Part shown: positions 23,287 through 61,414 of the stretch, one piece after another | Layout: every line of letters begins with the position of its first letter | How positions within the stretch are numbered: position 1 is the stretch's first letter | From: Minisyncoccota bacterium | Lineage (GTDB): Bacteria; Patescibacteriota; Minisyncoccia; JAHIHE01; JAGLIN01 | Assembly: GCA_023142595.1 (NCBI GenBank) | Contig: JAGLJF010000003.1 | Coordinates: 3,873 to 67,872, forward strand | Length of the DNA: 64,000 nucleotides | Direction of reading: 5' to 3' | Notes under the pieces: generated by a model | The model's database searches: none | Told to the model about the DNA's origin: nothing | The model's input: only the letters and a program-made list of their open reading frames with translations | Made by a program: the position numbers and the translations under genes

Positions 23287-24018
23287 CTACTCTTTCTCTT
23301 CTTTATGTACCCTTGTTACAGGGTGCCAATAATTTTTCTGAGAATGACGATGATAAAGAACATCGTCTTTCACCTTTCTCTCCTCCCCGTCAAACTTAGG
23401 AAGAAGAGCCTCAATTCCTCCGATAGGATCTGAACATTTTTCCTCTTCAAAGAGAGGAGAAAATTCATTTTCAATCTTTTCGTAAGCTTCACCTTTTCCT
23501 GGTGAAACTTCCCATGCCAAAGTGTAATCACTTTGACCTTCTTCGATAAAAACTGATAATGGCTTGAATCGAGCCATCAGTTCAACAGCTTTTATTGCTG
23601 CTTCCGCTGTGTTGGGATTACTATGACCCCAACTACTAGCATGAGTCACCAGCTGAGTAAATACTGTCGTGCTCGGAAGCACTATAGCATTTATTGGTCT
23701 CTTCAACTTTACAAGACCTTTATATTTTTGCCATGACATTCCTTGAATGCCATGAATTTCAGTAGTGAATACACTAGCACTGTATGTCCTTATTGACGGA
23801 CATACATTCACAAACCCAGCAGATTCCTGAGCTTTATATCCTTTCAAAGGAATAATTACAGGCATTTCAGGCTTGAATTTTTCCTCTTTAGTAATCTCAA
23901 TAAGATCACCAACTTCTCCTCCAAATCGGAGAACAAATGCCCCAGACTGTGTCTGGGTAACATCTACAACAGATACTGACAAGTTTCTATTGCCAGTATT
24001 AATATATAATGCATTCAT
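23287..24018 (-). CDS. Hypothetical protein with compositionally atypical (higher-GC) sequence; likely horizontally acquired
   Basis: 243-aa ORF with strong SD (GGAGAGGTGA). Its start overlaps (ATGA) the stop of an upstream 57-aa TM ORF. Embedded between MITEs. Confidence 0.45.
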   Translation of the reverse strand: MNALYINTGNRNLSVSVVDVTQTQSGAFVLRFGGEVGDLIEITKEEKFKPEMPVIIPLKGYKAQESAGFVNVCPSIRTYSASVFTTEIHGIQGMSWQKYKGLVKLKRPINAIVLPSTTVFTQLVTHASSWGHSNPNTAEAAIKAVELMARFKPLSVFIEEGQSDYTLAWEVSPGKGEAYEKIENEFSPLFEEEKCSDPIGGIEALLPKFDGEERKVKDDVLYHRHSQKNYWHPVTRVHKEEKE

Positions 24019-24188
24019 AATATCACCTCTCCCACTTCCTTTTCAGATAATTCCAAGAAGCGAGATTTTATATTTAGACTATAACAGTCAAAGCATTCAC
24101 CAAATCCGTTAGTAAATATTTTGACTATTATAATCAAGATGACAAACACAAAAAATTTTATGTTTTTTCTTCTTTTTTCAAAGAACAT
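24015..24188 (-). CDS. Small TM protein (57 aa; MFFEKRRKNIKFFVFVILIIIVKIF...), translationally coupled to the downstream 243-aa gene
   Basis: Perfect SD GGAGGTG 3 nt before ATG. Stop TGA overlaps the next ATG. Not in the supplied ORF track (<60 aa). Confidence 0.35.
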   Translation of the reverse strand: MFFEKRRKNIKFFVFVILIIIVKIFTNGFGECFDCYSLNIKSRFLELSEKEVGEVIL

Positions 24189-24593
24189 TTTCACCTCCGA
24201 TAATTTATCAGAAGCTTTTTCAAACCTACCTTTTTAATTTTGTCATCCTGAACTTGTTTCAGAATGACAATTGTAAAAGATAAACTTAAAAAAAGAAAAG
24301 AAGAAATATGTTAATTATTCTTTGGAGACATTATGTCATCTCCATTTGGATAATCACCTGCTGTCATTATGTTTCACCTCCGTGCAAATTATTTCTTCTT
24401 TTTTTGAGAATATTATTTTTTAATATCCTCCTTGTTAAATGTTTTTTCAACCCCTCTTTGCAAAACATAGAGGTTGATGTAAATGAGTCTGGGTATTGTT
24501 GGTTTAACGGGTCTATATGATTTTAGCCGTAACCTCAACTCTCTCCTCTTTTACATCAATCTATATGCTTTGTTTATTGCAGTGTGACTCAAG

Positions 24594-24703
24594 TGTCATC
24601 CTGAACTTGTTTCAGGATCTTTTGTTTTATGGGCAATGTTTCTAATAATTTCACAAAACTAGAAATTGCAATCGACAGATTCTGAAATAAATTCAGAATG
24701 ACA
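24594..24703. mobile_element. Family-1 MITE, short variant
   Basis: TGTCATCCTGAACTTGTTTCAGGATC ... GATTCTGAAATAAATTCAGAATGACA. Confidence 0.7.
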
Positions 24704-24991
24704 GCAAACAAACAAAAAACGGATAGGAATATTTCTTTGAAAAAGAGTGTCCTAACCGTTTTTTTATATAGAAAAGGTCAGTTGGTAAATTAAATCTATA
24801 TTTATAGATAAATATATGATTCAATAATTCTCTCCTCAAAAAATTAATAATCGCTATATTCAATTTTTAAATTACTGCACTTTCTTACCATAACAGAGTA
24901 TTTTAACATACTTTGCAAATCTTGTCAAGGGGTTAATATAAATCCATTTTAGAATATTTATAGACTTTAATTTATATGCTATAATGTCTTT

Positions 24992-28585: not shown

Positions 28586-29203
28586 ATGTCTCGGCTATAT
28601 AAGAATAAATTCAAAACTGAATCAACGAGATTGAAAAAATGGGACTATTCACAGAATGGTTTTTATTTTGTGACGATTTGCACGAATAATCATCAGTTGT
28701 TTTTTGGTGATGTAAAAAAATCAGAATCAGAACATTGTCCAATTTTTGAAATGAAAAAATCGCCCATTGGCAAAATCGCCGAAAAATATTGGTTAGAAAT
28801 TCCAAAACATTTTTCAAATGTAAAATTAGATGTATTTGTAATTATGCCAAACCATTTACACGGGGTAATTGAAATTTGTGATGATATTGTGATTGATAAA
28901 AATAAACCGTGCAAACATGTAGAGACGCAGCAATGCTGCGTCTCTACAACAACAAATAATGAATCAAAAACATTTTATAGATTAATTCCAAAATCACTGC
29001 CTGTTATTATTCGCTCATTTAAATCAATTTGTACAAAAACAATAAATCAGAAATTTGATGATAGAAATTTTTCCTGGCAATCGAAATACTATGATCATAT
29101 TATTAGAGATGAAAAATCATTAGACGAAATCAGAAAATATATTATTGATAATCCCGCAAAATGGGATTTGGATAAGAATGTTGTTGAGAATTTTTATAAA
29201 TAG
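28586..29203 (+). mobile_element. Second REP-associated tyrosine transposase (RAYT, IS200-like) carrying its own REP hairpin in-frame
   Basis: HuH motif MPNHLHGVIEI. Catalytic tyrosine region WQSKYYDHIIRDEKSLDEIRKYIIDNP. REP-B copies at 28525, 28919 (inside ORF) and 29241. Confidence 0.65.
28919..28947. repeat. REP hairpin family B, copy 2, located in-frame inside the RAYT ORF (encodes HVETQQCCVSTT)
   Basis: Same palindrome. The ORF remains open through it. Confidence 0.7.
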
Positions 29204-29609: not shown

Positions 29610-31064
29610 ATGGTATCAAATGAATATATCCCAGTAATTGTTTTTGTTGTTTTTGTTGTAATCTCTATAGCTTTTCTGTCTCGTTTGTACAAATGCTATG
29701 GAACAACTCAAAAATTAAAAGCAGAAAGAGAAAAAACGCAAGAAGAAAGAAGAGATATCGAAACCAACATTAGAAGGTCTCTGTCAGAAGGGATCGATAT
29801 TCGTCAGGAAAATGAAGATAACCGAAAGAGGCTTGCCGATCAAATAGATAAATTAAGAATAAAAGAAGTAGCTGAATGGAAAAAAATTATATTAGTAGGA
29901 ATAATAACCGCTTCATTTTTTGTTCTGTCGGTTGTGTTGTTAATTGAATTAATTTTATTTAGCAGCATAGGACAATACAGGCCTTTTATGTTTACATTAA
30001 CAGAAACGACGGTAATTCTGATAATTGTATGGATTATCTACAGAATTATTCTTAGTTCGACAAAAATCACATTAAAAAATAATGGGGTTGTTCTTTACTT
30101 TGATATACCAGACAAACAAGTGGGCGAAGGACCTATTTTTGCATGGTTTAAAGATGTGAGAATACCAGGAACAGATATCATAATTTCTAGAATAATAGAA
30201 ATTGAAAGAAAGGAAATTGTGTTCGATGTTCACAAAGATAAAACAATGTTGGCGGTCTCAGCTGATTCTACACAGCCCTTTTGGCTTGATGGTTATGTTA
30301 CATATAGAATAAAAGATATTGTCCAAACTATAATTACAACAGGAGAACATAGTCTTGATGGAATAAAGGACTATTTTGAAGGAAAAGAACAGGAGGCGTC
30401 TGTTGAAAATGAAGCCGGAGAAAAAGAAAAGATGAATATTAGAATGGGAGGTATTATAGATTTAACTTTCAGATCTTTTGTGAGAAATTTTTTCCGAGAA
30501 GCAGATAATTTTGGTATAAAAGATGGAGACACCGACGAAGTAGTAATCAATAAGGCGATTGGTGTGCAAGAACAACTTAGTAAGTCATTACACAGTCAGT
30601 TCGCATATCTTAAATATTTTGGAATAGAGCTTATGGCAACAGAAGCAACGGACATTAAGCCGTCTCAAGAAGTTGAAAATAGGCTCGTAAAAGCAAGAAC
30701 TAGCGCACAAGATATTGGCATAGCTACAAAAGAAAAAGATGCAGCTGTTGAAACAGGAAAAGTTGGACCTGAATTAATGAACATCTTTGAGAAAGATGCA
30801 AATTTTGTAATAACTCCAGAAATAAAAAGCGTTATAGCTCTCCTGACTATAAATGCTGATGCACTTAAAGGGGTTTTAGAGGGTTCGAACTTAAATATTG
30901 CATTGGTGCCAGCCATTAACAAACTTGCTGATGCAATTGGTGGCGGAAGTCCCACTTCTGCTGATACAAAAGACTTGGTGAATAAAGTTTTAAGCGAGAT
31001 TAAAAATGACCCACAAGGAATAAAAGCTGTTGTAGATCAAATAAAAAAAGCGAAAATGTTATAA
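29610..31064 (+). CDS. Membrane protein with SPFH/band-7-like domain (stomatin/prohibitin/flotillin superfamily), N-terminal coiled-coil and 3-4 TM helices
   Basis: FGIELMATEATDIKPSQEVENRLVKARTSAQDIGIATKEKDAAVETGK resembles the SPFH C-terminal helix region. An upstream beta-rich segment is SPFH-like. Confidence 0.45.
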   Translation: MVSNEYIPVIVFVVFVVISIAFLSRLYKCYGTTQKLKAEREKTQEERRDIETNIRRSLSEGIDIRQENEDNRKRLADQIDKLRIKEVAEWKKIILVGIITASFFVLSVVLLIELILFSSIGQYRPFMFTLTETTVILIIVWIIYRIILSSTKITLKNNGVVLYFDIPDKQVGEGPIFAWFKDVRIPGTDIIISRIIEIERKEIVFDVHKDKTMLAVSADSTQPFWLDGYVTYRIKDIVQTIITTGEHSLDGIKDYFEGKEQEASVENEAGEKEKMNIRMGGIIDLTFRSFVRNFFREADNFGIKDGDTDEVVINKAIGVQEQLSKSLHSQFAYLKYFGIELMATEATDIKPSQEVENRLVKARTSAQDIGIATKEKDAAVETGKVGPELMNIFEKDANFVITPEIKSVIALLTINADALKGVLEGSNLNIALVPAINKLADAIGGGSPTSADTKDLVNKVLSEIKNDPQGIKAVVDQIKKAKML

Positions 31065-31084: not shown

Positions 31085-31744
31085 ATGATAGCATTGGCTT
31101 TTGTGCTTGCTTTAATTGTTATAGTAAGTATAATAATATTTAAAAAATTGAAAACCAGAGCTTCATCAATGGCTTTGACTTCAATAACATCTCCAAAAGT
31201 CCCAAAAATAAAAATCACCGCGAGTAATTTATTCAAATTATTTGTTTACGGAACGGTGATTTTTATGTTAATAGCAATGATTTTATTTTCTTCATTGCTA
31301 GTTTATAGTACTTTTTGGGAAGGAGAGTCAGAGGCGGAAATTGAATATCTGCATCCGACGGAAACCAATCAATATATATTTTCTCCAGCAGGAACCGGCA
31401 ATCATAAAATCGGTCCCGCAACAGAGGATGTAGAGATTCATCTCGCATCTTATAATCTGGAAAATTTTGATTGGAAAAATATTTCTTTCGTCGTTACAGG
31501 AGGAGAGAAATATAAAACAAAAATCATCTTTGTCAAACATTACGACAAAGATGACAATGACAATGTTGTCGTTCCCGACAGATTTATTGAAGATATTGGC
31601 CCTTCGTCGGAAACAACGCAAAAAAAGTATCATCAGTCAGTATACTGCCCTGATGATGCAGAAGGATCTTTTATTCTTGTAGTTTATCTTAAAAAAGGTG
31701 GCTACATAGAGATTGAAGATCTACACATAGAAACTTGGGAATAA
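31085..31744 (+). CDS. Hypothetical membrane-anchored protein (2 TM + beta-rich ectodomain); possible NfeD-like partner of the preceding SPFH protein
   Basis: SD GGGAGG 8 nt upstream. Architecture only. Confidence 0.3.
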   Translation: MIALAFVLALIVIVSIIIFKKLKTRASSMALTSITSPKVPKIKITASNLFKLFVYGTVIFMLIAMILFSSLLVYSTFWEGESEAEIEYLHPTETNQYIFSPAGTGNHKIGPATEDVEIHLASYNLENFDWKNISFVVTGGEKYKTKIIFVKHYDKDDNDNVVVPDRFIEDIGPSSETTQKKYHQSVYCPDDAEGSFILVVYLKKGGYIEIEDLHIETWE

Positions 31745-31880
31745 CCAGGTTTCACGGGGAAGAATTATACCTTCCCTATTTTTTTGTTTATTTTTTTTAA
31801 AATATATTTCTGTAGCAATTCAATTATATAAATTACATCAGAGATACTACCTAATTCACAGGCAAAATTTACTTAACTCC

Positions 31881-32191: not shown

Positions 32192-34492
32192 ATGAACAAA
32201 AAAACAAAAACTTTTCAAAAATTTGCTCTTTTATTTCTCGTTGTTTTAGTTGGAATTAGTTTTCCGCAAAATTATGCTAATGCTGGTGTTGCTGAATTAT
32301 GGGATATAGCGACTGACCCCCTTGGTGTTGGCAAGGCATTGTTAAATATTCTTCAATTGTTAATTTATGGAATAGGACTTCTTCTTCTTGGAATTGTGGC
32401 TATCTTTGTCGAAATTTCTGCTTGGCTTATTGATGTTTTTCTTGACCCCAAAATCTATGTTGGACAACCTGCTACTGCATTTGCTCCTGCTATCCCAGGT
32501 GTTCTAACTTCAAATTCAATTTTAATTGGTTGGACAGTTGTCAGAGATATTTGTAATATGTTTTTTATGTTCTTTCTTCTAATCGTTGCTTTTGGAACAA
32601 TGCTCAGAAGTAAGTCAATAAACATCAAGGCAATTTTGCCAAAAATCATCATTTCTCTATTTTTGATTAATTTCAGTATGGTTTTTGCTTATCTGATCAT
32701 TGACATTAGCCAATTTTTTATGATTGAAATCAGCTCTTGGATGACAGGAGGATTTGCTCTGGCAGCTCAATCTCTTAGTACTATTCCAAACGGATTTAAA
32801 TCAGGTTTTGCTATTTTTGAAAACATTGGTGCCGTGGATACCTTTATGATTGTGAATATCATATTTGCTATTATATTTTCTGTTTGTCTAGTCTTTGTCT
32901 ATCTTTTGCTCGTAGGTTTCTTGCTTATTCGTTTGGTATATTTTGCGGTTCTGATTGTTTTTTCTCCTGTTGCCTTTTTGGGAATTGCTTTTCCAGGTTT
33001 GTCAAAATATTCCTCTCAATGGTGGTCAGAAATTACAAAATGGGCAATTTTTGGTCCAATTTTTATTTTCTTTGTCTATCTTTCAACCACGATGGCAAAC
33101 GAATTAGTTGGAACTGTGTTTGCGGATGTTTCTCCTGCATTTGGCTTTTTTGACAAAATAGCTCTGCTTGTTATCCCAGCTGTAGTCCCGCTTGTAATTT
33201 TGCTAATGGCTCCAAAATATGCATCTGATTCTGGAGTAGCAGGAGCCCAACAACTCGTCGGTGGCAGAGGCGGTCTTGGAAATATTTCAATGGGGTCTTA
33301 TGGTGTGGCGAAATGGGGAGCTGGAAAAACGAAGCAGGCTGGTGCATGGGGTGGCAGAAGAATTGGATATGATTCAAGAAGGATTGGTGATTCAGTTCGT
33401 GGAGGAACAAAAGCATTAGCAGGTAAAATACCTATCAAGCGTGTTAGAGAAAGAATTCAAGGTAAGATAGCGATACAAGAAGTGAATAGAAAGGGCAAAG
33501 ACAGAAAAAATATCGAAGAAAAGAAGTCTGATTTTAAAGAGTTTAATGGCAAAGATGCTATTATTGCAGCAAAGGGAATTGAAGCAAAGAAATTACGAAA
33601 AGGAGAATCGTTAAGCAAGGAAGATGAATCGAAATTTATTGCTCTTATAGAACATGCGGCAGCAAAAGGAGAAAATCTTAGTACTAATTTCTCAGAAGCG
33701 CAACTTGAAATGGCAACCAAACGGGGTGCAGATGTTGATGAAATTGCAAAACATGATCCTGTTGCAGCTGGAACAATGAAACATTCAAAAGATGCTACTA
33801 AATCAGCAGAAGATCATACTGCTGAATATATGCAAGAACACGCTGAATCAGGAGACTGGAAAAAATATAGTGAACACACTAGACGAAATAACTTTGTAGA
33901 TATGGTAGAACATATTGATTCGAAAGATTTGCAAAATCATATCAAAGGTTCAGGTCCAAAAGCAAAGAAGGATTATGAAATTGGTGCTGATCAGATGATG
34001 CAAAAGTTAAAAGAAGAAATTACTGCTAATTTAACTAAAGGAACTCCAGCTGATATTGCGAAGGCTGCAGACTTAGGGAAAGAGCTTCAAAAAGCTCGAA
34101 AGAAAATCAGAAAAGTGACTGGTAATCTTGAAATTTCTGACGCAGAAAGAAATAGTGATGGATATAGAATGAGCGAAGATGCAAGCGGTACAACAACGCC
34201 ATTGGGCCATGGAGAGAAAGCGCCTACTGGTAGTAGTATTCAGTTAAATGCACCACTAATGCAAGAAGCAGTAAAAGTAACTGGAGGAGCTGACTTTAAA
34301 AAACTGACAAGCGAAAGTAAAGTTGCTTATGCGAAACATGCGAACGCAGATAATATTAATAGCTTACGATTGAAAGAGGAGGGTTCAGATGACTTGCAAG
34401 CAGTAGCAGATGAAATAAAGAAACGTCCAACTACCGATCCTGTACATATAGCAGCAGCTTCTCATGAAATATTAGGAAAATATATGACTTAA
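32192..34492 (+). CDS. VirB6/TrbL-like polytopic membrane protein of a type IV secretion-like system, with long K/E-rich hydrophilic C-terminal extension
   Basis: Signal peptide plus about 8 TM helices in the first ~350 aa. Located 1 kb upstream of PrgI-like and VirB4 genes. Confidence 0.4.
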   Translation: MNKKTKTFQKFALLFLVVLVGISFPQNYANAGVAELWDIATDPLGVGKALLNILQLLIYGIGLLLLGIVAIFVEISAWLIDVFLDPKIYVGQPATAFAPAIPGVLTSNSILIGWTVVRDICNMFFMFFLLIVAFGTMLRSKSINIKAILPKIIISLFLINFSMVFAYLIIDISQFFMIEISSWMTGGFALAAQSLSTIPNGFKSGFAIFENIGAVDTFMIVNIIFAIIFSVCLVFVYLLLVGFLLIRLVYFAVLIVFSPVAFLGIAFPGLSKYSSQWWSEITKWAIFGPIFIFFVYLSTTMANELVGTVFADVSPAFGFFDKIALLVIPAVVPLVILLMAPKYASDSGVAGAQQLVGGRGGLGNISMGSYGVAKWGAGKTKQAGAWGGRRIGYDSRRIGDSVRGGTKALAGKIPIKRVRERIQGKIAIQEVNRKGKDRKNIEEKKSDFKEFNGKDAIIAAKGIEAKKLRKGESLSKEDESKFIALIEHAAAKGENLSTNFSEAQLEMATKRGADVDEIAKHDPVAAGTMKHSKDATKSAEDHTAEYMQEHAESGDWKKYSEHTRRNNFVDMVEHIDSKDLQNHIKGSGPKAKKDYEIGADQMMQKLKEEITANLTKGTPADIAKAADLGKELQKARKKIRKVTGNLEISDAERNSDGYRMSEDASGTTTPLGHGEKAPTGSSIQLNAPLMQEAVKVTGGADFKKLTSESKVAYAKHANADNINSLRLKEEGSDDLQAVADEIKKRPTTDPVHIAAASHEILGKYMT

Positions 34493-34504
34493 AAAATTTA
34501 TTTT

Positions 34505-35329
34505 ATGTATAATATTAAGATAATGAGTGAAGAAAAAAACGAAAAAGATAAAAAAAATGATGAGATGATGCGAAAAGTCAGGCTTTTGCCAGATTTTGTT
34601 TATGATGCATTACTGATAAATGAGGGAATTTCAGCAAATTCAGAAATTATTGAAAAGTATGAATTAAATGATGAACAAAAAGACAAAATGTTAGATTTGA
34701 ATTTGAATATTATTTTCAAAGAACTTGCAATTGAAAATTTGTCTGATTCTATTGAACAAAATTTGAAAGTGAACAAAGAAACAGCTTCACAAATTACGCT
34801 TGATCTCTTTTTGAAGAAATTTTATCTAGCAGCCAGTTATTTTCCTGGAATTGAGGATGAGATTTTGAGACTTGGTGGGGAAATACCGAAGGAGAAGCCG
34901 AAAAAATTAGGGGAGCAACTTTTGAAAAGAGAAGAAGAGATGGATAGGATAAAAGAAGAAGAAAAACGAGCAGAAGCCGAAAGAATGGCGGATACGATTA
35001 TTTCAAAATCTGTTGATGAGTTATTGAAAGAATTTCCAATTGTTGGAAATCAACAAATTGGTTCTCAAGAATCAATCACCCTTAAAACAAAACCTGAACC
35101 AATGAAGCCGTTGATAAAATACTGGCTAGAAGATTACAAAGAAAAAATGGGTTATTACAATCATTCAAATATCGAAAGAGTTCAATATGTCTATCACGAC
35201 AAAAACACAAAAAATATGAATGAAGAAGAAAGAAGGCAGTTAAATTTGATTTTAAAATCAGCCGACGAAAAAATCCCCCTCCCATATTCCACAAAAAGCA
35301 AGAAAATTGATTTTTCAAGAATTGAATAA
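34505..35329 (+). CDS. Hypothetical soluble acidic/coiled-coil protein within T4SS-like locus
   Basis: No recognisable motifs. Co-directional, 12-nt gap from the VirB6-like gene. Confidence 0.3.
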   Translation: MYNIKIMSEEKNEKDKKNDEMMRKVRLLPDFVYDALLINEGISANSEIIEKYELNDEQKDKMLDLNLNIIFKELAIENLSDSIEQNLKVNKETASQITLDLFLKKFYLAASYFPGIEDEILRLGGEIPKEKPKKLGEQLLKREEEMDRIKEEEKRAEAERMADTIISKSVDELLKEFPIVGNQQIGSQESITLKTKPEPMKPLIKYWLEDYKEKMGYYNHSNIERVQYVYHDKNTKNMNEEERRQLNLILKSADEKIPLPYSTKSKKIDFSRIE

Positions 35330-35451
35330 ATTTTTAACCTGTCGTAAAGTAAATCATTCGTCTCTAAGAGCCTCTTAAAGGCTCTTAGAGACTGAAGCTA
35401 TCTTACAGCGGGGACAAATAAAACTCAATGATAATCACCTAACAACAACCC

Positions 35452-35895
35452 ATGCAATATAGTGTTCCTCAATTTTTAAACATTGAAGATAAAATTGTTG
35501 GTCCGTTCACGGGCAAACAAGTTCTTTTTCTGATTATGGGATTCGGAGTTCTACTGATTTCTTTTACTTTTTTTAATATGGCATTTTTTGCAATCATTGC
35601 TATTCTGGTTATTCCAATCACCTTAGCTTTTGCTTTTTGGAAACCAAAAGGAATGACAGTTTCACGCCTAATAACAAATATGATCAATTTTCATACCACC
35701 TCTCATCTTTATGTTTGGAGAAGAGAACCAAATCTGAGGATGTATAAAATGACTCAAAGAAAAGTAGCTAAAGATAGCATTGGAGAGAAAAAAGTTTCCA
35801 AAAGAAGAATCAGAGAATTAGCATGGCTGCTTGATACAAGTACTTCTATAGACACTCCTTTCGAAGCAAAAACAAGACCCGATGAGAATATTTAA
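35452..35895 (+). CDS. PrgI-family (VirB3-like) T4SS membrane protein
   Basis: N-terminus MQYSVPQFLNIEDKIVGPFTGKQVLFLIMG followed by two TM helices matches the PrgI/VirB3 pattern. Confidence 0.55.
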   Translation: MQYSVPQFLNIEDKIVGPFTGKQVLFLIMGFGVLLISFTFFNMAFFAIIAILVIPITLAFAFWKPKGMTVSRLITNMINFHTTSHLYVWRREPNLRMYKMTQRKVAKDSIGEKKVSKRRIRELAWLLDTSTSIDTPFEAKTRPDENI

Positions 35896-35985
35896 GCAAA
35901 TTGTTGAATTAAATGTATAAAAAATCTTCTTTATCTTTTTATAAAAATTACGAATAAAAAACTAACAATTTAACAATCTAATTAT

Positions 35986-36657
35986 ATGTCTACACCAGAT
36001 AAACAAAAGAAAAAAGGCTTAAGCACGCAAAAATATCTTGAAATTGCTGAAATAAAAGATGGCGTTGTTATTATGAAAAATGGAAGCATGAGAGCTGTCC
36101 TTATGGTTTCATCAATTAATTTTGCTTTAAAATCAATTGATGAACAAGACGCAACGATTTATCATTTTCAAAGTTTTTTAAATTCTCTTGATTTTTCAAT
36201 CCAAATTGTCGTAAATTCTCGAACCTTGAATCTTGATAATTATTTGCAAATTCTCAAAGATAACGAGAAAAGACAAATGAATGAACTTCTTCGCATGCAA
36301 ACGGCAAGCTACATTGAATATATTCAAGGGCTGGTGAAAATGGCAAATATTGTCAATAAAACATTTTATATAGTTGTTCCATTTTCAGTCTCAGAGTCAA
36401 AAGGAGGCACCATGAAAGCTTTAAAGGGGTCAATAAGTGCTCAAAAACTGATTTCTAACAGAGCTACATTCGAAAAATACAAAGATCAACTTTTTCAAAG
36501 AGTTGATCATGTTGTAGGAAATTTAGGTGGTTCAGGGCTAAAGATGACAATGTTGAATACACAAGAATTAATCGAGCTTTATTATAATTTATATAATCCA
36601 GAAAGTTCTGAAAAGAAAGCCTTGGCAGACATTGAAGACCTTGATTTGGCAATGTAA
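35986..36657 (+). CDS. VirB4/TrbE-family ATPase, N-terminal segment (split gene or pseudogene part 1)
   Basis: YLEIAEIKDGVVIMKNGSMRAVLMVSSINFALKSIDEQDATIYHFQSFLNSLDFSIQIVV matches the conserved VirB4/TrbE N-terminus (dgvv.tkdGsl.a.f.v.G..fe...). Stop, then 37 nt, then the next ORF. Confidence 0.55.
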   Translation: MSTPDKQKKKGLSTQKYLEIAEIKDGVVIMKNGSMRAVLMVSSINFALKSIDEQDATIYHFQSFLNSLDFSIQIVVNSRTLNLDNYLQILKDNEKRQMNELLRMQTASYIEYIQGLVKMANIVNKTFYIVVPFSVSESKGGTMKALKGSISAQKLISNRATFEKYKDQLFQRVDHVVGNLGGSGLKMTMLNTQELIELYYNLYNPESSEKKALADIEDLDLAM

Positions 36658-36696
36658 AAAATTTCTCTATACAAAGTAATTAATAATAAATTATAT

Positions 36697-38517
36697 ATGT
36701 TGAAAAATAAAATTACTAAAAAACAGAAAGTCCAAGCTCCAACTGACAAGTCTGCTCTTTTAGATTCTGAAAAAATGTACCAAAAGGGAATGGCGACTGT
36801 AAAAGATATTATTGCTCCATCAGCTTTCAAAATTGAAAGTGACCATGTGATGATTAATAAAAAACTAGCTACTACCTTTTTTGTTTATGCCTATCCTCGA
36901 TTTCTGCAAACAAATTGGTTTTCTCCAATTATTAATCTTGATACAACATTCGATATTGCAATGTTTATTCATCCACAAAAATCCGCTGATGTTTTGAAAA
37001 GTTTGCTGAAACTAGTTACTCAACTTCAATCTCAAATGTCTATCGAAGAAGAGAAAGGTATGGTTCGAAATCCAATGCTTGAGACTGCATATCAAGACGC
37101 TGAAGGTTTGAGAGACGATCTTCAACAAGGCGTTGAACATTTTTTTCAGTTTGGACTTTATGTGACAATTTATGGAGATACGAAAGAGGAATTGGAAAAA
37201 ATTGAAACAAGCATCGAATCTGTTCTGGAAGCAAAATTAATTTATATGAAATCAGCCATTATGCAAATGGAAGAAGGTTTCAACTCCACTCTTCCTCTTG
37301 GAAACGACAAGTTGATGATTGGAAATAATATGAATACTTCCCCACTCTCAACTGCATTTCCTTTTGTTTCCAGCGATCTGACATCCAATCAAGGAATTTT
37401 ATATGGAATTAATCGACATAATAATAGTTTGATTCTATTTGACAGATTTTCTATGGAAAATGCAAACATGGTCATTTTCGCCAAATCAGGTGCGGGAAAA
37501 AGTTATGCAGTCAAGCTTGAAATTTTGAGAAGTTTGATGATGGAATCTGATGTAATTGTAATTGATCCAGAAGATGAATATAAACATCTTTGTGACACAG
37601 TCGGAGGAACATTTATGAAAATTTCCCTGTCTTCCAGAAATCATATTAACCCTTTTGACTTACCAACTGCTATTGGAGACGAAACTCCAGCAGATGTTCT
37701 TCGAAAAGCCATTTCTGATGTTGCAGGACTTATTCGAGTTATGCTTGGTACAATTACTGCTGAAGAAGATTCAATTTTAGATCGAGCCATCGCAGAAACT
37801 TATGCAATCAAAGATATTACAGCAGAAGCTGATTTTTCAACCCTTGAACCTCCAACAATGTCAGATTTGCAAATGGTTTTGGAAAATATGAGTGGAGCAG
37901 AAAGTCTTTCAACAAGAATTAAAAAATATACCGAAGGAACTTTTGCAGGTTTTTTGAATCACAAAACAAATATTGATGTTGAGTCTGGAATGGTGGTCTT
38001 CAATATCAGGGATATGGAAGAAGAACTCAGGCCAGTTGCAATGTATTTGGTTTTACACTATATTTGGACACTGATTAGATCAAAAACAAAAAAGAGGGTG
38101 ATGGTTGTTGATGAAGCTTGGATTATGATGAAACATGAAGACGCAGCATCATTCCTTTTTGGAATCGCCAAAAGATGCAGAAAATATTATCTCGGGCTGA
38201 CAACAATTACTCAAGATGTGACAGATTTTATGAGTTCAAGATACGGAAAACCGATTGTGACAAACTCATCAATGCAACTTCTTTTGAAACAATCACCAGC
38301 TGCAATCAAGACTATTGTGGATACATTCTATCTTACCGACGAAGAAAAGTTTTTGCTTTTGGAAAGTAACATTGGAGAAGGAATTTTCTTTGCTGGTTCA
38401 AAAAGAGCGGCCATCAAAATTGTGGCTTCATATTCCGAGGATCAAATCATCACTTCCGACCCAGAGCAACTTCTGGAAATTGAAAAAGCAAAAAAAGAAC
38501 TTTCAGAAATGGCATAA
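36697..38517 (+). CDS. VirB4/TrbE/CagE-family T4SS ATPase, main body (Walker A/B)
   Basis: DIIAPSAFKIESDHVMINKKLATTFFVYAYP N-domain. Walker A FAKSGAGKSY. Walker B RVMVVDEAWIMM. Conserved TQ motif. Confidence 0.8.
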   Translation: MLKNKITKKQKVQAPTDKSALLDSEKMYQKGMATVKDIIAPSAFKIESDHVMINKKLATTFFVYAYPRFLQTNWFSPIINLDTTFDIAMFIHPQKSADVLKSLLKLVTQLQSQMSIEEEKGMVRNPMLETAYQDAEGLRDDLQQGVEHFFQFGLYVTIYGDTKEELEKIETSIESVLEAKLIYMKSAIMQMEEGFNSTLPLGNDKLMIGNNMNTSPLSTAFPFVSSDLTSNQGILYGINRHNNSLILFDRFSMENANMVIFAKSGAGKSYAVKLEILRSLMMESDVIVIDPEDEYKHLCDTVGGTFMKISLSSRNHINPFDLPTAIGDETPADVLRKAISDVAGLIRVMLGTITAEEDSILDRAIAETYAIKDITAEADFSTLEPPTMSDLQMVLENMSGAESLSTRIKKYTEGTFAGFLNHKTNIDVESGMVVFNIRDMEEELRPVAMYLVLHYIWTLIRSKTKKRVMVVDEAWIMMKHEDAASFLFGIAKRCRKYYLGLTTITQDVTDFMSSRYGKPIVTNSSMQLLLKQSPAAIKTIVDTFYLTDEEKFLLLESNIGEGIFFAGSKRAAIKIVASYSEDQIITSDPEQLLEIEKAKKELSEMA

Positions 38518-39272
38518 ACCTGAACTCTTATTATTTGTCATTCTGAATTCATTTCAGAATCTTAGTTAAATTAGATTTGAATCTATACTTTTTTACATAA
38601 TACTTTTATTTATAAAAAACATATATATTCTATAAATATCATACAGGTGCTAGTATATTCATCTGTCATCTCAGAATTTATTCCGAAACGATAGTGCAGG
38701 AATAAATGTCTGAGATCCAGTTTGTTTCGTTTATTAGAATCATTGTATAAACCGTTTTTGCATCATTAATTATTTTCTTTTCTTATAAAACCTTACAAAA
38801 TATATTATTTATTGAGACTTACTGGATTCCAGATAAATTTTTCTTTTGACTCTTAATTGTTAGATTGTCCAGCGTTGTATATACTTTTATAATTACCATT
38901 AGTATCAATTGTCATCCTCAGCTTGACTGAGGATCCAGAATAGACTGAGATAAATTTTAATTTAGGCTTGATACAGCCAAAAGATAATAATCCTAGATTC
39001 CCGCAGGAGTTTATGCTGAATTAATTTCAGTGCGGGAATGACAAATAAGTTTAATGTAATGTATATAACTATTTTTAAAAAGTATAGGAAGCGCTGAAAA
39101 ATCTTACATATTAATAGTAAAATTTTCTGAAATGACAATATTTTGCCACTAAATTAATAAACATTTATACTATAAATGGTTTATTAATTCACTGACGTAA
39201 TTTTATCAACAAATTAAGTACCATTTATAAAAATAGCAACCCAAAGATATTATATAAAAGCAAAAGAGCAAT

Positions 39273-40256
39273 ATGAGTGTTTCATCTAAAAACAATCAAG
39301 AAAACAAAAAGAGGAATAACAATTCTTCTTCTTTTGATAATGATATCTCAAACTCAAAAACGAAATCTGATTCGACTCAATCTAAAGATTCAAACAATAT
39401 ATTGAAGCAAAAATTAATCGAAAAAATAAAAAAAGGCGCAAAAGAAAAGATGGAAAAAATTGAAGATTCTGAAAAGGAAGATGATTATCAAGCTTTAAAT
39501 AAATCAGAATCTAAGAAATCTGGAGCTTCACGACTGGATTCTCCATCAAAATCAAATTTATTGCCTCAGAATCGGAGAGTTGACAATAATAAAGATAATG
39601 AACTAAACAGAATCAAAAATGAATCACAAAGCGATGTGCAAATAGAAAAAATAAGAAAAGAGGCGCAAGAAAAGTCTGAAAAAGAAGCTGAAGAGGCATT
39701 AAAAAATATTCAAGATAGAAAAGCAAGATTTATAATTAAACTAGCAGGAAAACATGCAGAACAAGCTGCTTATACTATTGCAGCAAAAATGGCAAAAATG
39801 GCAGATGATGGCGGTATGATGGCATTTTTTGTGATGGCATTGAGCCTATTTCTCGCTATTATAAAAGACATAATTGACATTGGCGAAGTAGGACTTTTAG
39901 CATTTCTTGCTACTATTGTGGCAATTCCCGTAGTGATAGCAATTGAGAGCGTTTTTTGGTTTATAAATTTTGGCATAACGCTAATAAATATATATTTTTG
40001 GACCATTCTTTTGGGAGGTAGTCATAAAAAATGGTTTTGGAAAAGAATCTATAAAACAATTCTATTGTCTGGACTTGATTTTCTGCCAGGCATTGATGCA
40101 ATTCCATTTATGACATTAATGGTTCTTTGGAATATTTCTGATTATTATAAAGCAAGAAAAGAAGCAAAAGCGGATTTGAAAAAATTTATGATTGATTATA
40201 AGAGTACGGGAAAAGTCAATAAAGCAACTGCTGAAAAATATGTTGGATCTATATAA
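39273..40256 (+). CDS. Hypothetical protein: S/N/K-rich low-complexity N-terminus, C-terminal multi-TM region
   Basis: ORF with TM cluster FFVMALSLFLAIIKDII...WFINFGITLINIYFWTILLGG. Within the T4SS-like neighbourhood. Confidence 0.3.
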   Translation: MSVSSKNNQENKKRNNNSSSFDNDISNSKTKSDSTQSKDSNNILKQKLIEKIKKGAKEKMEKIEDSEKEDDYQALNKSESKKSGASRLDSPSKSNLLPQNRRVDNNKDNELNRIKNESQSDVQIEKIRKEAQEKSEKEAEEALKNIQDRKARFIIKLAGKHAEQAAYTIAAKMAKMADDGGMMAFFVMALSLFLAIIKDIIDIGEVGLLAFLATIVAIPVVIAIESVFWFINFGITLINIYFWTILLGGSHKKWFWKRIYKTILLSGLDFLPGIDAIPFMTLMVLWNISDYYKARKEAKADLKKFMIDYKSTGKVNKATAEKYVGSI

Positions 40257-40470
40257 TAATTTGAAAATTATAATTTTATTTTCTACATAATTTATTTTGG
40301 TTTATTATTACTGTAGATTAGTATATAATAAAAATAAGTATGTTTAAAATAAAAGAGATTCTTATGACCAATTGTCATTCTGAGAGAACGCGATTGTCAT
40401 TCTGAGTGAAACGAAGAATCTCAAAATAAAGTTTATCAATAAATTTCAATAAACCATAATTTTTAAAAAT

Positions 40471-41565
40471 ATGAAAATAAAAAATTATTTAATTGGTGCA
40501 TTCCTCTTGGTGAGTTCTTTCGCTTTTGTCGGCATTGTTAGTGCTGCTACAACTTGGGATCCGCTAGTGAAAATTCCAGGAATTCCATCGACGGGAATTA
40601 ATCTCTCAACATATTTGGTTGGACTTTATAATTTTATGCTAAGCGTTGTCGGAATTGTAGCAGTGATGATGTTAATCGTAGCTGGTATGAGATATATCAC
40701 CGCAGCTGGAAATGCGACTTCGGTCACTGACGCCAAAAGCATCGCAGGAAATGCAGTTGTTGGATTGCTTCTGGCTTTGCTTTCTTTTGTTATCCTCAAA
40801 ACAATCAACCCAGATGTCTTATATCTCAAAAAACCAGGCAGTGGTTTCGCTGGTACTACTGGCACCCCAGTAGATTTGGGTAGTTGCGGTTCTTATGATA
40901 GCGCTGGTGTTTGTACCTGTGCTAACAATGAAATAATAACACCTGCTGTTGCTAATGCAGCTGCTTGCAACACTGCATGCGAAGCCTCTCCAGAGCTTTG
41001 TCGTGCCGCTCCAAAAAATGTTTGTTTACTAAAAGCATCAGAGCCTGGAGATACTAACTGCTATTGTATTAACAAAAACACAATTCCAATAGGAACAGCA
41101 ACTAATTGCCAAGATGCTTGTGCTGTAAGTGATTGTGTAGTGGCGGATTTAAGAGTAGGACCATCGCCTAATCCAAAAGATAAATCAGCTTCTGTTAAAA
41201 TAGATGAAAATGTCTATTTAGACGCAAGATCTTATTCAGTAGATTATTCCTATAATAATTTAAATAGATTTGTTGATTACGACGATCCTTCTTTTGACAA
41301 TGGAATTGATAGATATGAAATGTGTTTTGACGAAGAAAACCCTGCTGCTTGTATCACTTTAAATCACGGCTGCTCTGATGGTGCATCTTGTAGTTGGGTT
41401 ACAGGTGCTCTCGGTTGGATTGGTTCTACATTTCTTGCTTGGGCACCATGTGGAACAGATGTAACATCATATGGCGGTGGTGGTACAAAAAAAATAAAAC
41501 TTTATGTGAGATCAACAAATGGTTGTATTATAGCAACAGATGAAGTTATTGTGAATGTTAACTAA
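40471..41565 (+). CDS. TrbC/VirB2-like pilin domain fused to a ~250-aa cysteine-rich C-terminal extension
   Basis: Signal peptide, then two hydrophobic helices separated by TAAGNATSVTDAKS (classic VirB2/TrbC topology), then a domain with >20 Cys (CGSYDSAGVCTCANNE...CNTACEASPELCRAAPKNVC...). Confidence 0.5.
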   Translation: MKIKNYLIGAFLLVSSFAFVGIVSAATTWDPLVKIPGIPSTGINLSTYLVGLYNFMLSVVGIVAVMMLIVAGMRYITAAGNATSVTDAKSIAGNAVVGLLLALLSFVILKTINPDVLYLKKPGSGFAGTTGTPVDLGSCGSYDSAGVCTCANNEIITPAVANAAACNTACEASPELCRAAPKNVCLLKASEPGDTNCYCINKNTIPIGTATNCQDACAVSDCVVADLRVGPSPNPKDKSASVKIDENVYLDARSYSVDYSYNNLNRFVDYDDPSFDNGIDRYEMCFDEENPAACITLNHGCSDGASCSWVTGALGWIGSTFLAWAPCGTDVTSYGGGGTKKIKLYVRSTNGCIIATDEVIVNVN

Positions 41566-41592
41566 CAAAAAAATAAGAAGGTTTAATCCTTC

Positions 41593-42243
41593 TCATGTTA
41601 ATTTTACAACTAAAAAATTTATTTCTTTGGGATGTAAATTTGTTCGACTTGTTTGTGGATTATCTTTTCCAAAAACAAAATAAGTTCTTTCTGCTGGATT
41701 AACATTTAATCCGCCACTAGAAATACCTAATTTTGCTAATGTTCCTTCGTCTTTTAAGCCTTCTATACTTATTCCAATGTGAATAAGTCTTGATCCATGA
41801 TTTTCAGCATAACCTCTTATCCCAGTATCTTTATATTCCGTAATCGTAACATAGCATTCTTTATATAAAGGATGTTCAATTGTTTTCGGAAGTTCATTTA
41901 TCGCAACAAGACCATTTAACCCACCAAAACTGTCAACGATTTGCTTAAATCGGATACCTTGATTATAAAAATCAAGCTCTGACTGTGTTGTTATAGATAT
42001 AGTCGGATTTACAGAATCTGCATCTTCTGTTTTAGCCTCTTCTTTGTTAGCATTCAATTCTGGATTTAATCCCAATTTTTCGGTTTGCTGAACTTCTGAT
42101 TGTTCATCTCTTGTATCACTAGCAATTCCTATTAGCGTCATTGCTACAATTAAGATTATTGCAAGCATTAATCCAATTATAACAAATTTTGAACCTCCCC
42201 TTAAAGGATTATTTACATTTGCATTGTCTGGCATATCTATCAC
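41593..42243 (-). CDS. Hypothetical N-terminally membrane-anchored extracytoplasmic protein
   Basis: SD AAGGAGTGA. TM at residues ~20-42. Confidence 0.35.
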   Translation of the reverse strand: MIDMPDNANVNNPLRGGSKFVIIGLMLAIILIVAMTLIGIASDTRDEQSEVQQTEKLGLNPELNANKEEAKTEDADSVNPTISITTQSELDFYNQGIRFKQIVDSFGGLNGLVAINELPKTIEHPLYKECYVTITEYKDTGIRGYAENHGSRLIHIGISIEGLKDEGTLAKLGISSGGLNVNPAERTYFVFGKDNPQTSRTNLHPKEINFLVVKLT

Positions 42244-42970: not shown

Positions 42971-44038
42971 CTATTGAATCCCTTTGAACATCGGCATTCC
43001 ATTGTCAGGACTAGTCGGTACATAAATTGTTCCTTCTCTGTCTTTGAGTTCTCTGATATATAAGTAGTTCAAATATTCAGCAGTCAAACTTTCATTAATT
43101 GTCTTTTGAGCATCTCTTTGTCCTTCTGCCTCAATTCTTTTTCGATCTGCTTCTTTCTTTTCTTTTTCTAAAACAAAATCATACCTTTGACTTTCTTGCT
43201 GTGCTTGAAGTTTTTCTTGAATGCTGGCATCAAGCTTTTCTGGAAGAATTACATTTCGAAGAAGAACTTGCTCAATGGCAATTCCTCTTGGCTCAATGTT
43301 GTCTGCCATTTTTTGCCTAATGGTATTGATTATTTCATCTCTTTTGTCTGAGTAGATTGATTTTGAATCATATCCTGCTACAACTTCTCGAATTGCGCTT
43401 CTGATTTCAGGTCTAATGATTTTTTCCTGATAATTTATTCCCAATTCTTTATATACATCAGAAGCACTGTCTTCTACAAGATGATAAAAAACAGTAATAT
43501 CAAGTTTGACGGTTAGCCCTTCGCTTGTCAGAGCATCAATGGAATCGTCTCCAATTTTTTCGCCCTCTCCTTGTACAACACTCATAGTGTATTGTTCGGT
43601 TCTAATGCTTAGTTTTGTTATCTGAGCGAGAGGATTGATTATATGAAGTCCAGATTTTACTTCAGCATCTTTTACTTTCCCAAACAAATGATAAACCCCT
43701 GTTTCTCCTGCAGGAATAATGACAATGGAATTTGCAAGAACGATTAGAGATAAGATAATCACTATAACTGTACTTGTTGTTTTTTTATCCATAAATTTTG
43801 AATTTAGTTTATTAAAAAATTGATTTGAATTATTTGAAGAAAAAAATTGTTTGCCATCTTTCATTCCAGAAAAATTGAGATCAATCCCCTTTTTTCTCGA
43901 TTCTTCTTTAATGGCAAGAAATACAGGAAGAAGAAAAACTGCTCCAAAAATTAACCAGAAGATTAGTGATGGTTTGAATATTAATAAAAATATAAATATC
44001 CAAATTATTGTTTTTGTTAATTGTTCTTTGTTTTGCAT
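42971..44038 (-). CDS. SPFH/band-7 family protein (prohibitin/HflC-like), N-terminal TM
   Basis: Full-length SPFH similarity: IPAGETGVYHLFGKV..., EQVLLRNVILPEKLDASIQEKLQAQQESQR, coiled-coil tail. Confidence 0.8.
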   Translation of the reverse strand: MQNKEQLTKTIIWIFIFLLIFKPSLIFWLIFGAVFLLPVFLAIKEESRKKGIDLNFSGMKDGKQFFSSNNSNQFFNKLNSKFMDKKTTSTVIVIILSLIVLANSIVIIPAGETGVYHLFGKVKDAEVKSGLHIINPLAQITKLSIRTEQYTMSVVQGEGEKIGDDSIDALTSEGLTVKLDITVFYHLVEDSASDVYKELGINYQEKIIRPEIRSAIREVVAGYDSKSIYSDKRDEIINTIRQKMADNIEPRGIAIEQVLLRNVILPEKLDASIQEKLQAQQESQRYDFVLEKEKKEADRKRIEAEGQRDAQKTINESLTAEYLNYLYIRELKDREGTIYVPTSPDNGMPMFKGIQ

Positions 44039-44526: not shown

Positions 44527-44811
44527 TTAATCTATATTCAAGTCAGCAAATCCAGGATTTTTACTTTTTATTAAGTTTATTTTCCACGCTCTGTGCCAAT
44601 TTTTAAGTTGTTTTTCTCTTTTAATTGCAGAAACAACATCACTTGTCTGTTCAAAATAAACTAATTTTTTTAAATTATATTTTTCAGAAAAACCTTTTAC
44701 TAGTTTATTTTTATGTTCATAAACTCTTCTTTTTAAATCATTTGTCACACCAATATACAGGGCTGTATCAGTAAAATTCATCATAATATACACATAATAC
44801 GATTTTGACAT
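44527..44811 (-). CDS. GIY-YIG nuclease-domain small protein
   Basis: YYVYIMMNFTDTALYIGVTNDLKRRVYEHK is a GIY-YIG motif. 94 aa. Sits in a nest of MITE copies. Confidence 0.7.
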   Translation of the reverse strand: MSKSYYVYIMMNFTDTALYIGVTNDLKRRVYEHKNKLVKGFSEKYNLKKLVYFEQTSDVVSAIKREKQLKNWHRAWKINLIKSKNPGFADLNID

Positions 44812-45145: not shown

Positions 45146-45337
45146 ACTATTGTCGTTTTGTCTTTTGAAAATTTACATTAAATATTATGTAACTCAAGTA
45201 TACATTAATTTTCAATATAAGTGAAATTTTTGTTTATTGATTGACTGTTTCATCTAATATGATATTATTCTAATAGAAAATGAGTAACAATTCAGTAACC
45301 TAACCTTCAGACTTTTTGTTTGGAGTATGGTTTAAAT

Positions 45338-45442
45338 CCACTCGCGTAGAAACGGTCTTCTGATCGGTACTACGCGAGTGGTCTTTACCTGAAAGGGTAT
45401 TGGGCAATCCGAAAGGGTCGCCGCCGACGGAAGACCTTTTTT
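45338..45442 (+). ncRNA. Candidate structured RNA / cis-regulatory leader upstream of the secreted nuclease gene
   Basis: Perfect 12-bp stem (CCACTCGCGTAG...CTACGCGAGTGG). Its loop (GGTCTTC) is complementary to a 3' GAAGACC followed by a T-run, giving pseudoknot/terminator potential. Locally GC-rich in an AT-rich genome. Confidence 0.3.
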
Positions 45443-45477: not shown

Positions 45478-46542
45478 ATGAAAATGAAAAAAATATTAAG
45501 TATTGTATTTTTGCTTTCACTGGTTGTAAGTTTTATTTCTATAACACCAAACATAAACGCAATGCAAATTCCAGAAGGAGCGATTATAAAAACTGATAAT
45601 AATCCTGATGTATATATTGTGAAATATAAAAACGGAAAACAATTTAAAAGGTTGGTTTTGAATCCTCAAGTTTTTGAAAGCTATAGTCATTTGAGATGGA
45701 GAGATATTTTGACCGTTAGTCAAATCGAAATGGATTCTTTTATTGTTTCTGATTTAGTGAAAGTAGATGCACAAACTGATATTTATCAGCTTGTGCCAAA
45801 TGGCGATATCGGAACTAAAGTTTTAATAGAATCAACTGTTGGCTATGATTTAGATTCAGCTTATACTATAAATTTAGTAGATTTTGGAAATTATGTAACG
45901 GGAGAAGTTAGGGGAATAATTGATACTGATAGTTATCCAAACGAGACCCAAAATAATATCTATACCGTGAATAGAGTTGTTGATGGTGATACTATAGAAG
46001 TTAATGTTAATAGTGTATTAGAAAAAGTCAGGTTGTTGGGTATAAATACACGAGAAACAGTTGATCCAAGAAAATCAGTTGAATGTTTTGGTATAGAGGC
46101 GTCCAATAAAGCAAAGATGGTTTTAATGGGTCAAAATATTGAACTTGTGGCGGATAACACTCAGGGCGATCGTGACAAATATAACCGTCTTCTCCGATAT
46201 GTTTTTCTGGAAGATGGAACTAATTTTAATAAAATGATGATTAGTGAAGGATATGCTTATGAATATACATACAATACATCATATAAATATCAAGTCGAAT
46301 TTAAACAGGCAGAAAAAGTAGCTATGGAAGCAAAAAGAGGTCTTTGGGCAACTAGTGTATGTGATTCACAATCCGCTCCTGTATCTGATCAATATAATTG
46401 CTCTAGTAATGTTTATAACTGTACGGATTTTTCTACTCACGCTGAAGCTCAATCTGCTTTTGAATCCTGCGGTGGGACAGCTAATGATATCCATAGACTT
46501 GATGGCGATAATAATGGTATTGCGTGTGAATCATTACAATAA
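45478..46542 (+). CDS. Secreted thermonuclease (SNase-like) with N-terminal unknown domain and C-terminal Excalibur Ca-binding domain
   Basis: Signal peptide. SNase motifs (VVDGDTIEV...RLLGINTRE...YNRLLRYV...RGLW). Excalibur tail CTDFSTHAEAQSAFESCGGTANDIHRLDGDNNGIACE. Confidence 0.7.
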   Translation: MKMKKILSIVFLLSLVVSFISITPNINAMQIPEGAIIKTDNNPDVYIVKYKNGKQFKRLVLNPQVFESYSHLRWRDILTVSQIEMDSFIVSDLVKVDAQTDIYQLVPNGDIGTKVLIESTVGYDLDSAYTINLVDFGNYVTGEVRGIIDTDSYPNETQNNIYTVNRVVDGDTIEVNVNSVLEKVRLLGINTRETVDPRKSVECFGIEASNKAKMVLMGQNIELVADNTQGDRDKYNRLLRYVFLEDGTNFNKMMISEGYAYEYTYNTSYKYQVEFKQAEKVAMEAKRGLWATSVCDSQSAPVSDQYNCSSNVYNCTDFSTHAEAQSAFESCGGTANDIHRLDGDNNGIACESLQ

Positions 46543-60371: not shown

Positions 60372-60391
60372 AAAATTAAAATTACTTTATA

Positions 60392-61411: not shown

Positions 61412-61414
61412 AAT

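Follow-up and report, generated by a model that had tools for sequence, protein, structure and literature searches.

Patescibacteria's type IV secretion system (T4SS) is the only one of its kind known to be essential for the growth of its owner, and it may be a conduit by which these ultra-small epibionts exploit their hosts. In Southlakia epibionticum, this system is encoded by locus SEML1_0006-0019 and resembles the conjugative systems of Gram-positive bacteria; it includes pilins and has no recognisable coupling protein or relaxase. Transposon sequencing (Tn-seq) showed that growth as an epibiont requires it (Wang et al. 2023, Cell; PMC10633639). A later survey found VirB4 in 2,417 of 3,035 Patescibacteria assemblies, where it forms a monophyletic clade nested within mating-pair-formation type FATA (MPF-FATA). 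The most abundant partner is TrsD, usually adjoining virB4, and PrgI/VirB3, VirB6 and pilins of families PF18895 or PF04956 are encoded nearby; ksgA is among the common neighbours, and the system is listed for 2,407 assemblies (Quinonero-Coronel et al. 2025, Microb Genom; PMC12102498). Here we describe a gene cluster at positions 32192-41565 (+) of a 64,000-nucleotide stretch of contig JAGLJF010000003.1 from a Minisyncoccota bacterium (assembly GCA_023142595.1). This stretch, called the window below, represents about 64 kb of a 99.8-kb scaffold. The cluster is a chromosomal T4SS locus in the genome of an ultra-small 'Pacebacteria' bacterium within the Candidate Phyla Radiation (CPR), and it is very probably an instance of the published, MPF-FATA-derived Patescibacteria T4SS.

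Homology and synteny show a translocon module in which an extended VirB6-like channel protein is combined with PrgI/VirB3 as anchor and with a VirB4 protein encoded by two genes, together with a VirB2-like pilin. Its lineage-specific partners are a soluble protein encoded after VirB6, a polytopic membrane protein of small size and, possibly, an SPFH protein encoded upstream. Ten plus-strand open reading frames (ORFs) lie between positions 29610 and 41565, and an ORF check returns the same coordinates for them as an earlier note made from the sequence of this DNA. When a profile of the VirB6-like family was run over one genome per GTDB species, relatives were recovered in 347 species, and almost all of these belong to Patescibacteria. 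Eighty loci were retrieved for comparison, many of which end at contig edges; PrgI is present in 42, the N-terminal piece of VirB4 in 40 and the VirB4 ATPase piece in 34. The order VirB6, soluble partner, PrgI, TrsD-like protein and VirB4 recurs in dozens of Patescibacteria species, so that the comparison with other CPR loci that had been suggested for this cluster shows the same gene order in many members of the group.

The VirB4 ATPase is a TrsE-like short form of 606 amino acids (aa) encoded at 36697-38517 (+). It scores 365 bits against the NCBIfam model conju_CD1110 (NF045971; cut-off 325) and 93 bits against the Pfam TraG P-loop family, and it matches the VirB4 domain of PDB entry 4AG5 with an E-value of 2.9e-43. 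Both its Walker A (AKSGAGKS) and Walker B (VVDEAW) motifs are intact. The similarity to TrsE from plasmid pSK41 amounts to 26% identity over aa 37-575 (E = 5e-46), and orthologues from Patescibacteria match with E-values of about 1e-235 to 1e-285. Ranking by similarity thus places its nearest relatives among other Patescibacteria VirB4 proteins and indicates a VirB4 of the MPF-FATA type.

The gene that precedes the ATPase, at 35986-36657 (+), encodes a 223-aa TrsD-like protein that corresponds to the first part of the VirB4 N-terminal domain. VirB4 models match it through their N-terminal region (positions 96-284 of NF045975, E = 7e-11), and it has a precomputed match to the TraC-like family PF26593. 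The TrsD/TraD model aligns over its full length with an E-value of 5e-7, which is under that model's cut-off. Pairwise comparison with pSK41 TrsD gives an E-value of 8e-4, and a profile of the N-piece family matches TrsD with 83% probability (E = 8.6e-6). In pSK41 the genes follow the same TrsC-TrsD-TrsE order, and TrsD and TrsE each align colinearly with their counterparts from the window.

Between the two ORFs, which share a reading frame, lie a TAA codon and 39 nucleotides, an arrangement that could be taken for a VirB4 pseudogene interrupted by an in-frame stop, within the remnant of a decaying or domesticated integrative and conjugative element (ICE). A Y1-transposase-like ORF at 28586-29203 and hairpins resembling repetitive extragenic palindromes (REPs) in and around the locus fit such a history. 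However, VirB4 is encoded by two genes in all 34 of the related Patescibacteria loci that have it, and the N piece is a separate gene in each of the 40 loci where it occurs. Piece sizes are nearly constant (221-238 aa for the N piece and 606-656 aa for the ATPase piece), while the junction differs between species, with genes in the same frame, in a shifted frame or overlapping at an ATGA. Both pieces are also highly conserved, with median identities to distant Patescibacteria classes of 58% for the ATPase and 48% for the TrsD-like piece, and the ATPase motifs are maintained. These varied junctions and strong conservation are expected of independent genes, and an origin of the split by nonsense mutation is rejected. 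Since the split occurs in all 34 of these loci and since the arrangement recurs in pSK41, a conjugative plasmid that is functional, the two-gene VirB4 is ancestral rather than a product of decay. Independent assemblies of five samples from one ENA project have moreover yielded an identical locus. We consider an ICE remnant extremely improbable. The earlier note had described VirB4 as lying in two pieces; there are indeed two ORFs and the ATPase is confirmed, but the protein is not broken and consists of the products of a TrsD-like gene and a VirB4 gene.

Directly upstream of the TrsD-like gene, both here and in 42 of the compared loci, is a gene for a PrgI/VirB3-like small membrane protein (147 aa; 35452-35895, +). 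It scores 37.8 bits against PF12666, above the gathering score of 27, in agreement with its original assignment. A hydrophobic hairpin spans aa 18-66.

The first gene of the cluster, at 32192-34492 (+), encodes a 766-aa polytopic membrane protein, which NCBI lists as hypothetical, from a 'Candidatus Pacebacteria bacterium' metagenome-assembled genome (MAG). Hydropathy analysis reveals a signal-like N-terminus and at least six hydrophobic segments up to approximately aa 345, followed by a C-terminal tail of 416 aa in which 32% of residues are charged. The family shares an invariant V-R-D-x-C-N-M-F-F motif. The protein itself matches no Pfam or NCBIfam family and stays under the thresholds of the VirB6/TrbL families PF04610 and PF19590, and its family profile finds only chance matches to the charged tail among PDB sequences. 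Thus, the VirB6 assignment is indirect. One family member (P0019), which resembles the window protein with an E-value of 4e-47, carries PF04610, and three others (P0020, P0021 and P0023) carry PF19590. TrbL is matched by 4 of 18 family members (best E = 1.2e-5), and the family profile aligns with the TrbL-family protein TrsL of pSK41 at 68% probability (hhalign, E = 4.9e-5) across a region that includes a WW motif. These transitive and profile matches, the polytopic topology and the position beside VirB3 and VirB4 give moderate confidence that this is an extended VirB6/TrbL-like protein with a long tail, as first proposed.

Immediately after the VirB6-like gene is a gene for a soluble two-domain protein (34505-35329, +), which probably starts at 34523 to yield a product of 268 aa. 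It was listed at first among the membrane-anchored proteins of the locus. This description must be withdrawn because hydropathy analysis finds no hydrophobic segment in it. The family is unannotated, yet its members directly follow the VirB6-like gene in 69 of the 80 loci and are often present twice. Alignments with hhalign reveal no likeness to any of the accessory proteins of plasmids pCF10 and pSK41 that were compared.

The last gene of the cluster (40471-41565, +) encodes a long VirB2-like protein of the T4SS_pilin type with 364 aa. Its signal peptide and hydrophobic hairpin of two helices (aa 45-111) are followed by an extension of about 250 aa that contains 18 cysteines. The score against PF18895 is 23.1 bits, just below the gathering score of 26.6. 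More than 100 homologues of 330-560 aa are found with E-values down to 1e-103, however; nearly all of them carry PF18895, and several are named 'pilin' at NCBI. An AlphaFold2 (AF2) model contains the signal helix, the two-helix hairpin, two small cysteine-rich modules and a poorly predicted C-terminus. A VirB2-like pilin near virB4 is thus identified through its PF18895-bearing homologues and the topology of the model. Profile searches of all six frames reveal no second pilin gene in the window.

Loci of the ABY1/Falkowbacteria type carry other accessory genes. In these loci (L010, L014, L015, L024, L039, L059, L066 and others), a giant secreted protein of approximately 1,500-3,100 aa is encoded upstream of the VirB6-like gene and precedes the T4SS genes. 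It is cysteine-rich and has a CBM_4_9 domain; a form of about 2,500 aa is one example. Further accessories in this group are a small membrane protein, a bitopic 205-aa protein encoded after VirB4 and a DsbA-like thioredoxin whose gene also follows VirB4. The abundance of cysteines in the giant protein echoes the cysteine-rich pilin extension in the window.

The genomic setting of the cluster is that of a chromosomal region. The G+C content of the window is low and uniform, at about 0.29-0.35 throughout. Genes for IF-2, RbfA, PcrA/UvrD and KsgA are found upstream, and those for a second SPFH protein, a secreted nuclease, ribosomal protein L19 and tRNAs are found downstream. PcrA and KsgA genes also occur upstream of the T4SS locus in four related species (L005, L008, L009 and L070). 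This housekeeping synteny and the uniform G+C content argue against an ICE, and that reading is rejected: no integrase, flanking tRNA, G+C anomaly, relaxase or type IV coupling protein (T4CP) was found in the window, and no integrase, relaxase or T4CP in the contig flanks that were covered. Together with the recurrent gene order, these features bear out the proposal that the cluster is not a plasmid or ICE transfer module. A scan for promoters and terminators gave counts at chance level, with terminator-like hairpins only at 31756-31777 and 41573-41596.

Pfam scanning of all window ORFs that encode 100 aa or more finds no VirD4/T4CP, relaxase, VirB11, VirB1-like hydrolase or integrase, and no lysozyme, CHAP, SLT or M23 domain. 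Precomputed annotations, together with a scan that we ran on some 18 kb of further contig sequence, extend the coverage to about 82 kb of the 99.8-kb contig, and no T4CP, relaxase, VirB11, VirB1-like hydrolase or integrase is found in this larger region. The components reported missing at first inspection are thus missing from the window and from the covered flanks as well. The description 'without coupling protein' is established for the covered part of the contig.

A true conjugation system could still have its relaxase and coupling protein encoded elsewhere, or have forms of them that are too divergent to recognise. The search extended over about 82 kb of the contig, which leaves its first 18 kb or so and other parts of the genome where such genes could lie, and VirD4-like T4CP homologues do occur in most Patescibacteria genomes, mostly far from virB4 (PMC12102498). 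In the same survey, however, relaxases are present in just 103 of 3,035 genomes, VirB4 follows class phylogeny with rare transfer between classes, and the distant T4CP homologue of S. epibionticum is non-essential although the T4SS is essential (PMC12102498). The locus in the window also resides in conserved chromosomal synteny. Conjugation is therefore a very unlikely function for this cluster.

Some observations weigh against assigning the cluster to a working T4SS of the Patescibacteria type. No VirB8-like or VirB1-like component was found at the locus, leaving the architecture incomplete compared to studied monoderm systems, and the 219-, 216- and 327-aa proteins described below have no sequence or profile similarity to the VirB8-like protein PrgL. 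The VirB6-like protein and the pilin each fall below Pfam thresholds, so that both calls depend on transitive or profile evidence; a profile check of these two proteins had been proposed, and it fails for each of them directly and succeeds through relatives that match the families. Fold searches with the pilin model return only generic helical-hairpin or weak Ig-like matches.

The general biology of T4SSs suggests how the products of this cluster might operate. In the cell membrane, VirB6 would serve as the docking site for the TrsD-like protein, VirB4 and PrgI. VirB4 would hydrolyse ATP to drive the extraction of pilin subunits and their polymerisation into a surface filament, with the cysteine-rich C-terminal domains of the pilin facing outwards. 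Filament and channel would mediate contact-dependent exchange with a host cell rather than plasmid transfer; the locus comes with neither a relaxase nor a coupling protein nor functions of the oriT type. Attachment, which has also been proposed as the function of this T4SS, is a guess.

It is possible, if doubtful, that the same T4SS and pilus instead act as an importer, taking up host DNA, RNA or other macromolecules as nourishment for a cell without nucleotide synthesis of its own, by analogy with Helicobacter ComB or archaeal Ced. The VirB4 ATPase piece matches the CedB model NF041017 with an E-value of 1.4e-12, but its 47 bits are far under the cut-off of 700, and no CedA-like, ComEC-like or DNA-processing genes are found in the locus. 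A gene for a secreted nuclease with SNase and Excalibur domains lies 4 kb downstream and the PcrA helicase gene lies upstream; either may be a neighbour that is not regulated together with the locus. T4SS loci of class ABY1 are often beside comF, recG and radA (PMC12102498). A 2025 review raises the speculation that uptake runs through the pilus, yet loss of comEC in S. epibionticum ended competence and not viability, unlike the essential T4SS (PMC12857230). Finally, a 2026 preprint reports that tubular structures occur where parasite and host meet and that host RNA is fed upon; it too discusses the pilus as a possible route of uptake from the host.

A more elaborate version of these ideas is that the T4SS has been remodelled in this Paceibacteria sub-lineage, such that a single VirB2-like pilin is fused to a disulfide-rich ectodomain of about 250 aa that coats the filament and serves in host recognition, an SPFH membrane scaffold and the Patescibacteria-specific soluble two-domain protein replace the coupling protein and VirB8 in organising the system and gating its substrates, and the whole assembly functions as a feeding tube for host macromolecules. 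We regard this combination as unlikely.

Several genes within and beside the cluster have less certain relationships to the secretion system. The SPFH/Band_7-like membrane protein (484 aa; 29610-31064, +) scores 23.3 bits against Band_7, just under the gathering score of 23.6, and has an N-terminal hydrophobic segment as well as internal ones. In each of the four related species L005, L006, L008 and L009, the product of the corresponding gene, located between those for KsgA and the VirB6-like protein, exceeds the gathering score of Band_7, even though these SPFH proteins have diverged from the window protein past detection by BLAST. This conservation of position gives modest support to an association of SPFH proteins with the T4SS inside a Paceibacteria sub-lineage, and the proposal that the protein is an accessory part gains the same modest support; it is possibly a lineage-specific T4SS accessory. 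A second, canonical SPFH/Band_7 protein (114 bits) is encoded at 42971-44038 (-), 1.4 kb past the pilin gene, so the T4SS locus is bracketed by two SPFH genes.

Between the upstream SPFH gene and the VirB6-like gene is a gene for a 219-aa protein (31085-31744, +) that has no family match in Pfam or NCBIfam and no assigned function. Two hydrophobic segments and a beta-rich C-terminal domain can be discerned. A homologue with 77% identity is encoded at the same position in L006, and L008 has a weak match. The terminator-like hairpin at 31756-31777 suggests that the SPFH and 219-aa genes probably form their own transcription unit.

A non-coding spacer of 755 bp (38518-39272) separates virB4 from the next gene. 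It has no plus-strand ORF of 25 aa or more, and it contains four REP-like hairpins at 38537, 38665, 38911 and 38997. This spacer is absent from the close relative L006, where the next gene begins about 100 bp after virB4. The 327-aa membrane protein encoded after the spacer (39273-40256, +) combines a low-complexity N-terminal half with a C-terminal hydrophobic domain. Alignments by hhalign give probabilities of 97% and 91% to families fam18 and fam95, which points to a relationship with small membrane proteins whose genes adjoin those for VirB6 or pilins in other Patescibacteria. In L006, a homologue with 77% identity is encoded at the equivalent site. No relationship to the pilin or to PrgI was found with hhalign. 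The hydrophobic segments of the 327- and 219-aa proteins agree with their initial description as membrane proteins.

Convergent with the pilin gene is a gene for a bitopic protein of 216 aa (41593-42243, -), whose membership in the T4SS is uncertain. It has one N-terminal hydrophobic segment, and the neighbour at its position in L006 is similar in the N-terminus only. The 219-, 216-, 274- and 327-aa proteins were aligned by hhalign against each other and against the pilin, PrgI and the families of ABY1-type loci, as well as PrgD, PrgE, PrgF, PrgG, PrgL, PrgM and PcfA from pCF10 and TrsA, TrsB, TrsF, TrsH and TrsJ from pSK41. The sole link from this set is the one between the 327-aa protein and the small membrane proteins that other Patescibacteria encode beside VirB6.

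The window has other features apart from the secretion locus. A 24-nucleotide REP-like hairpin, GTCATYCTGAAYTTRWTTCAGRATC, occurs at about 20 intergenic sites in both orientations, including 1284, 1394, 23059, 24595, 24679, 32031, 38537, 42693, 44158, 44311, 44852, 44985, 45121, 50224 and 57404. Longer variants are found at 38665, 38911, 38997 and 50068. IS200/Y1-transposase-like ORFs at 2478-3014 (-) and 28586-29203 (+) could be REP-associated transposases. A small ORF for a GIY-YIG nuclease (44527-44811, -) resides inside a repeat-rich intergenic region of 1.4 kb. A LOOT RNA motif (Rfam RF03000) at 45297-45422 (+) scores 67.3 bits against a gathering score of 46.4 and is located immediately upstream of the secreted SNase and Excalibur nuclease gene (45478-46542).

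Four or five ATP-grasp (RimK-like) genes are clustered at 59337-63800 and on the contig beyond (L085 7816-14464), accompanied by genes for a MATCAP-like peptidase and a 7TM_transglut protein in what looks like a peptide-ligation or peptide-modification module. Genes of the hydrogenase-maturation type are scattered at 57765-58829, 9892-11163, 11171-12172 and L085 14492-14701. They encode HypD, HypC, HypF C-terminal domains and a HypE-like AIRS protein, which this lineage is not expected to need, and no hydrogenase gene is seen in the window. Gene orientation and GC skew switch sign at an intergenic region of about 970 bp (24019-24991). No replication origin is claimed near 24.5 kb because there is neither a DnaA-box cluster nor a dnaA gene at approximately 24000-25000, and the skew simply follows gene orientation.

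The cluster can be compared with several known systems. The Trs system of pSK41/pGO1 (MPF-FATA, pGO1 subclass) shares the core order TrsC (VirB3), TrsD and TrsE (VirB4), with VirB4 as two genes, and has a TrbL-family VirB6 in TrsL. However, pSK41 is a plasmid with a VirD4-like TrsK, relaxases, the CHAP hydrolase TrsG and topoisomerase III, its proteins are only 21-26% identical to those of the window, and its CagC-family TrsB has no similarity to the pilin described here. The Prg/Pcf system of enterococcal plasmid pCF10 has the order PrgH (VirB6), PrgI (VirB3) and PrgJ (VirB4), and the PrgI and CD1110-type VirB4 families are shared. Unlike the window, pCF10 has a single full-length VirB4 in PrgJ, surface adhesins in place of a pilin, the hydrolase PrgK, the VirB8-like PrgL, the T4CP PcfC and a relaxase; none of its accessory proteins matches the unassigned proteins of the window by hhalign. 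Archaeal Ced and Helicobacter ComB are likewise driven by VirB4/HerA-type ATPases and need no relaxase, whereas the window lacks CedA-type or ComB-specific partners.

The closest correspondence is to the Patescibacteria-clade T4SS. Both have a TrsD-like gene beside virB4, PrgI/VirB3, VirB6 and a VirB2-like pilin of the PF18895 family, no relaxase or T4CP at a chromosomal locus with ksgA nearby, and a monoderm architecture that has no outer-membrane core. At the level of sequence, the locus has every tested feature of this system and lacks those that define a conjugative module. This match supports the interpretation given here, and it means that the interpretation is not new: the window adds one more Paceibacteria instance and no new principle, albeit as a clean example from a low-GC marine or sediment MAG. 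Some features differ. The window has one long pilin of 364 aa in contrast to the arrays of 2-11 short pilins in Saccharimonadia and Microgenomatia, it has no peptidase or lysozyme gene downstream of virB4, and its Paceibacteria sub-lineage carries SPFH and small two-transmembrane genes upstream, which are not mentioned in the searchable text of the published description. As far as could be checked, three minor points are new. These are the sole, cysteine-rich long pilin, the widespread soluble partner of VirB6 and the positionally conserved SPFH gene, and each of these details, from the cysteine-rich ectodomain to the near-ubiquitous soluble protein, could guide structural work on this class of secretion system.

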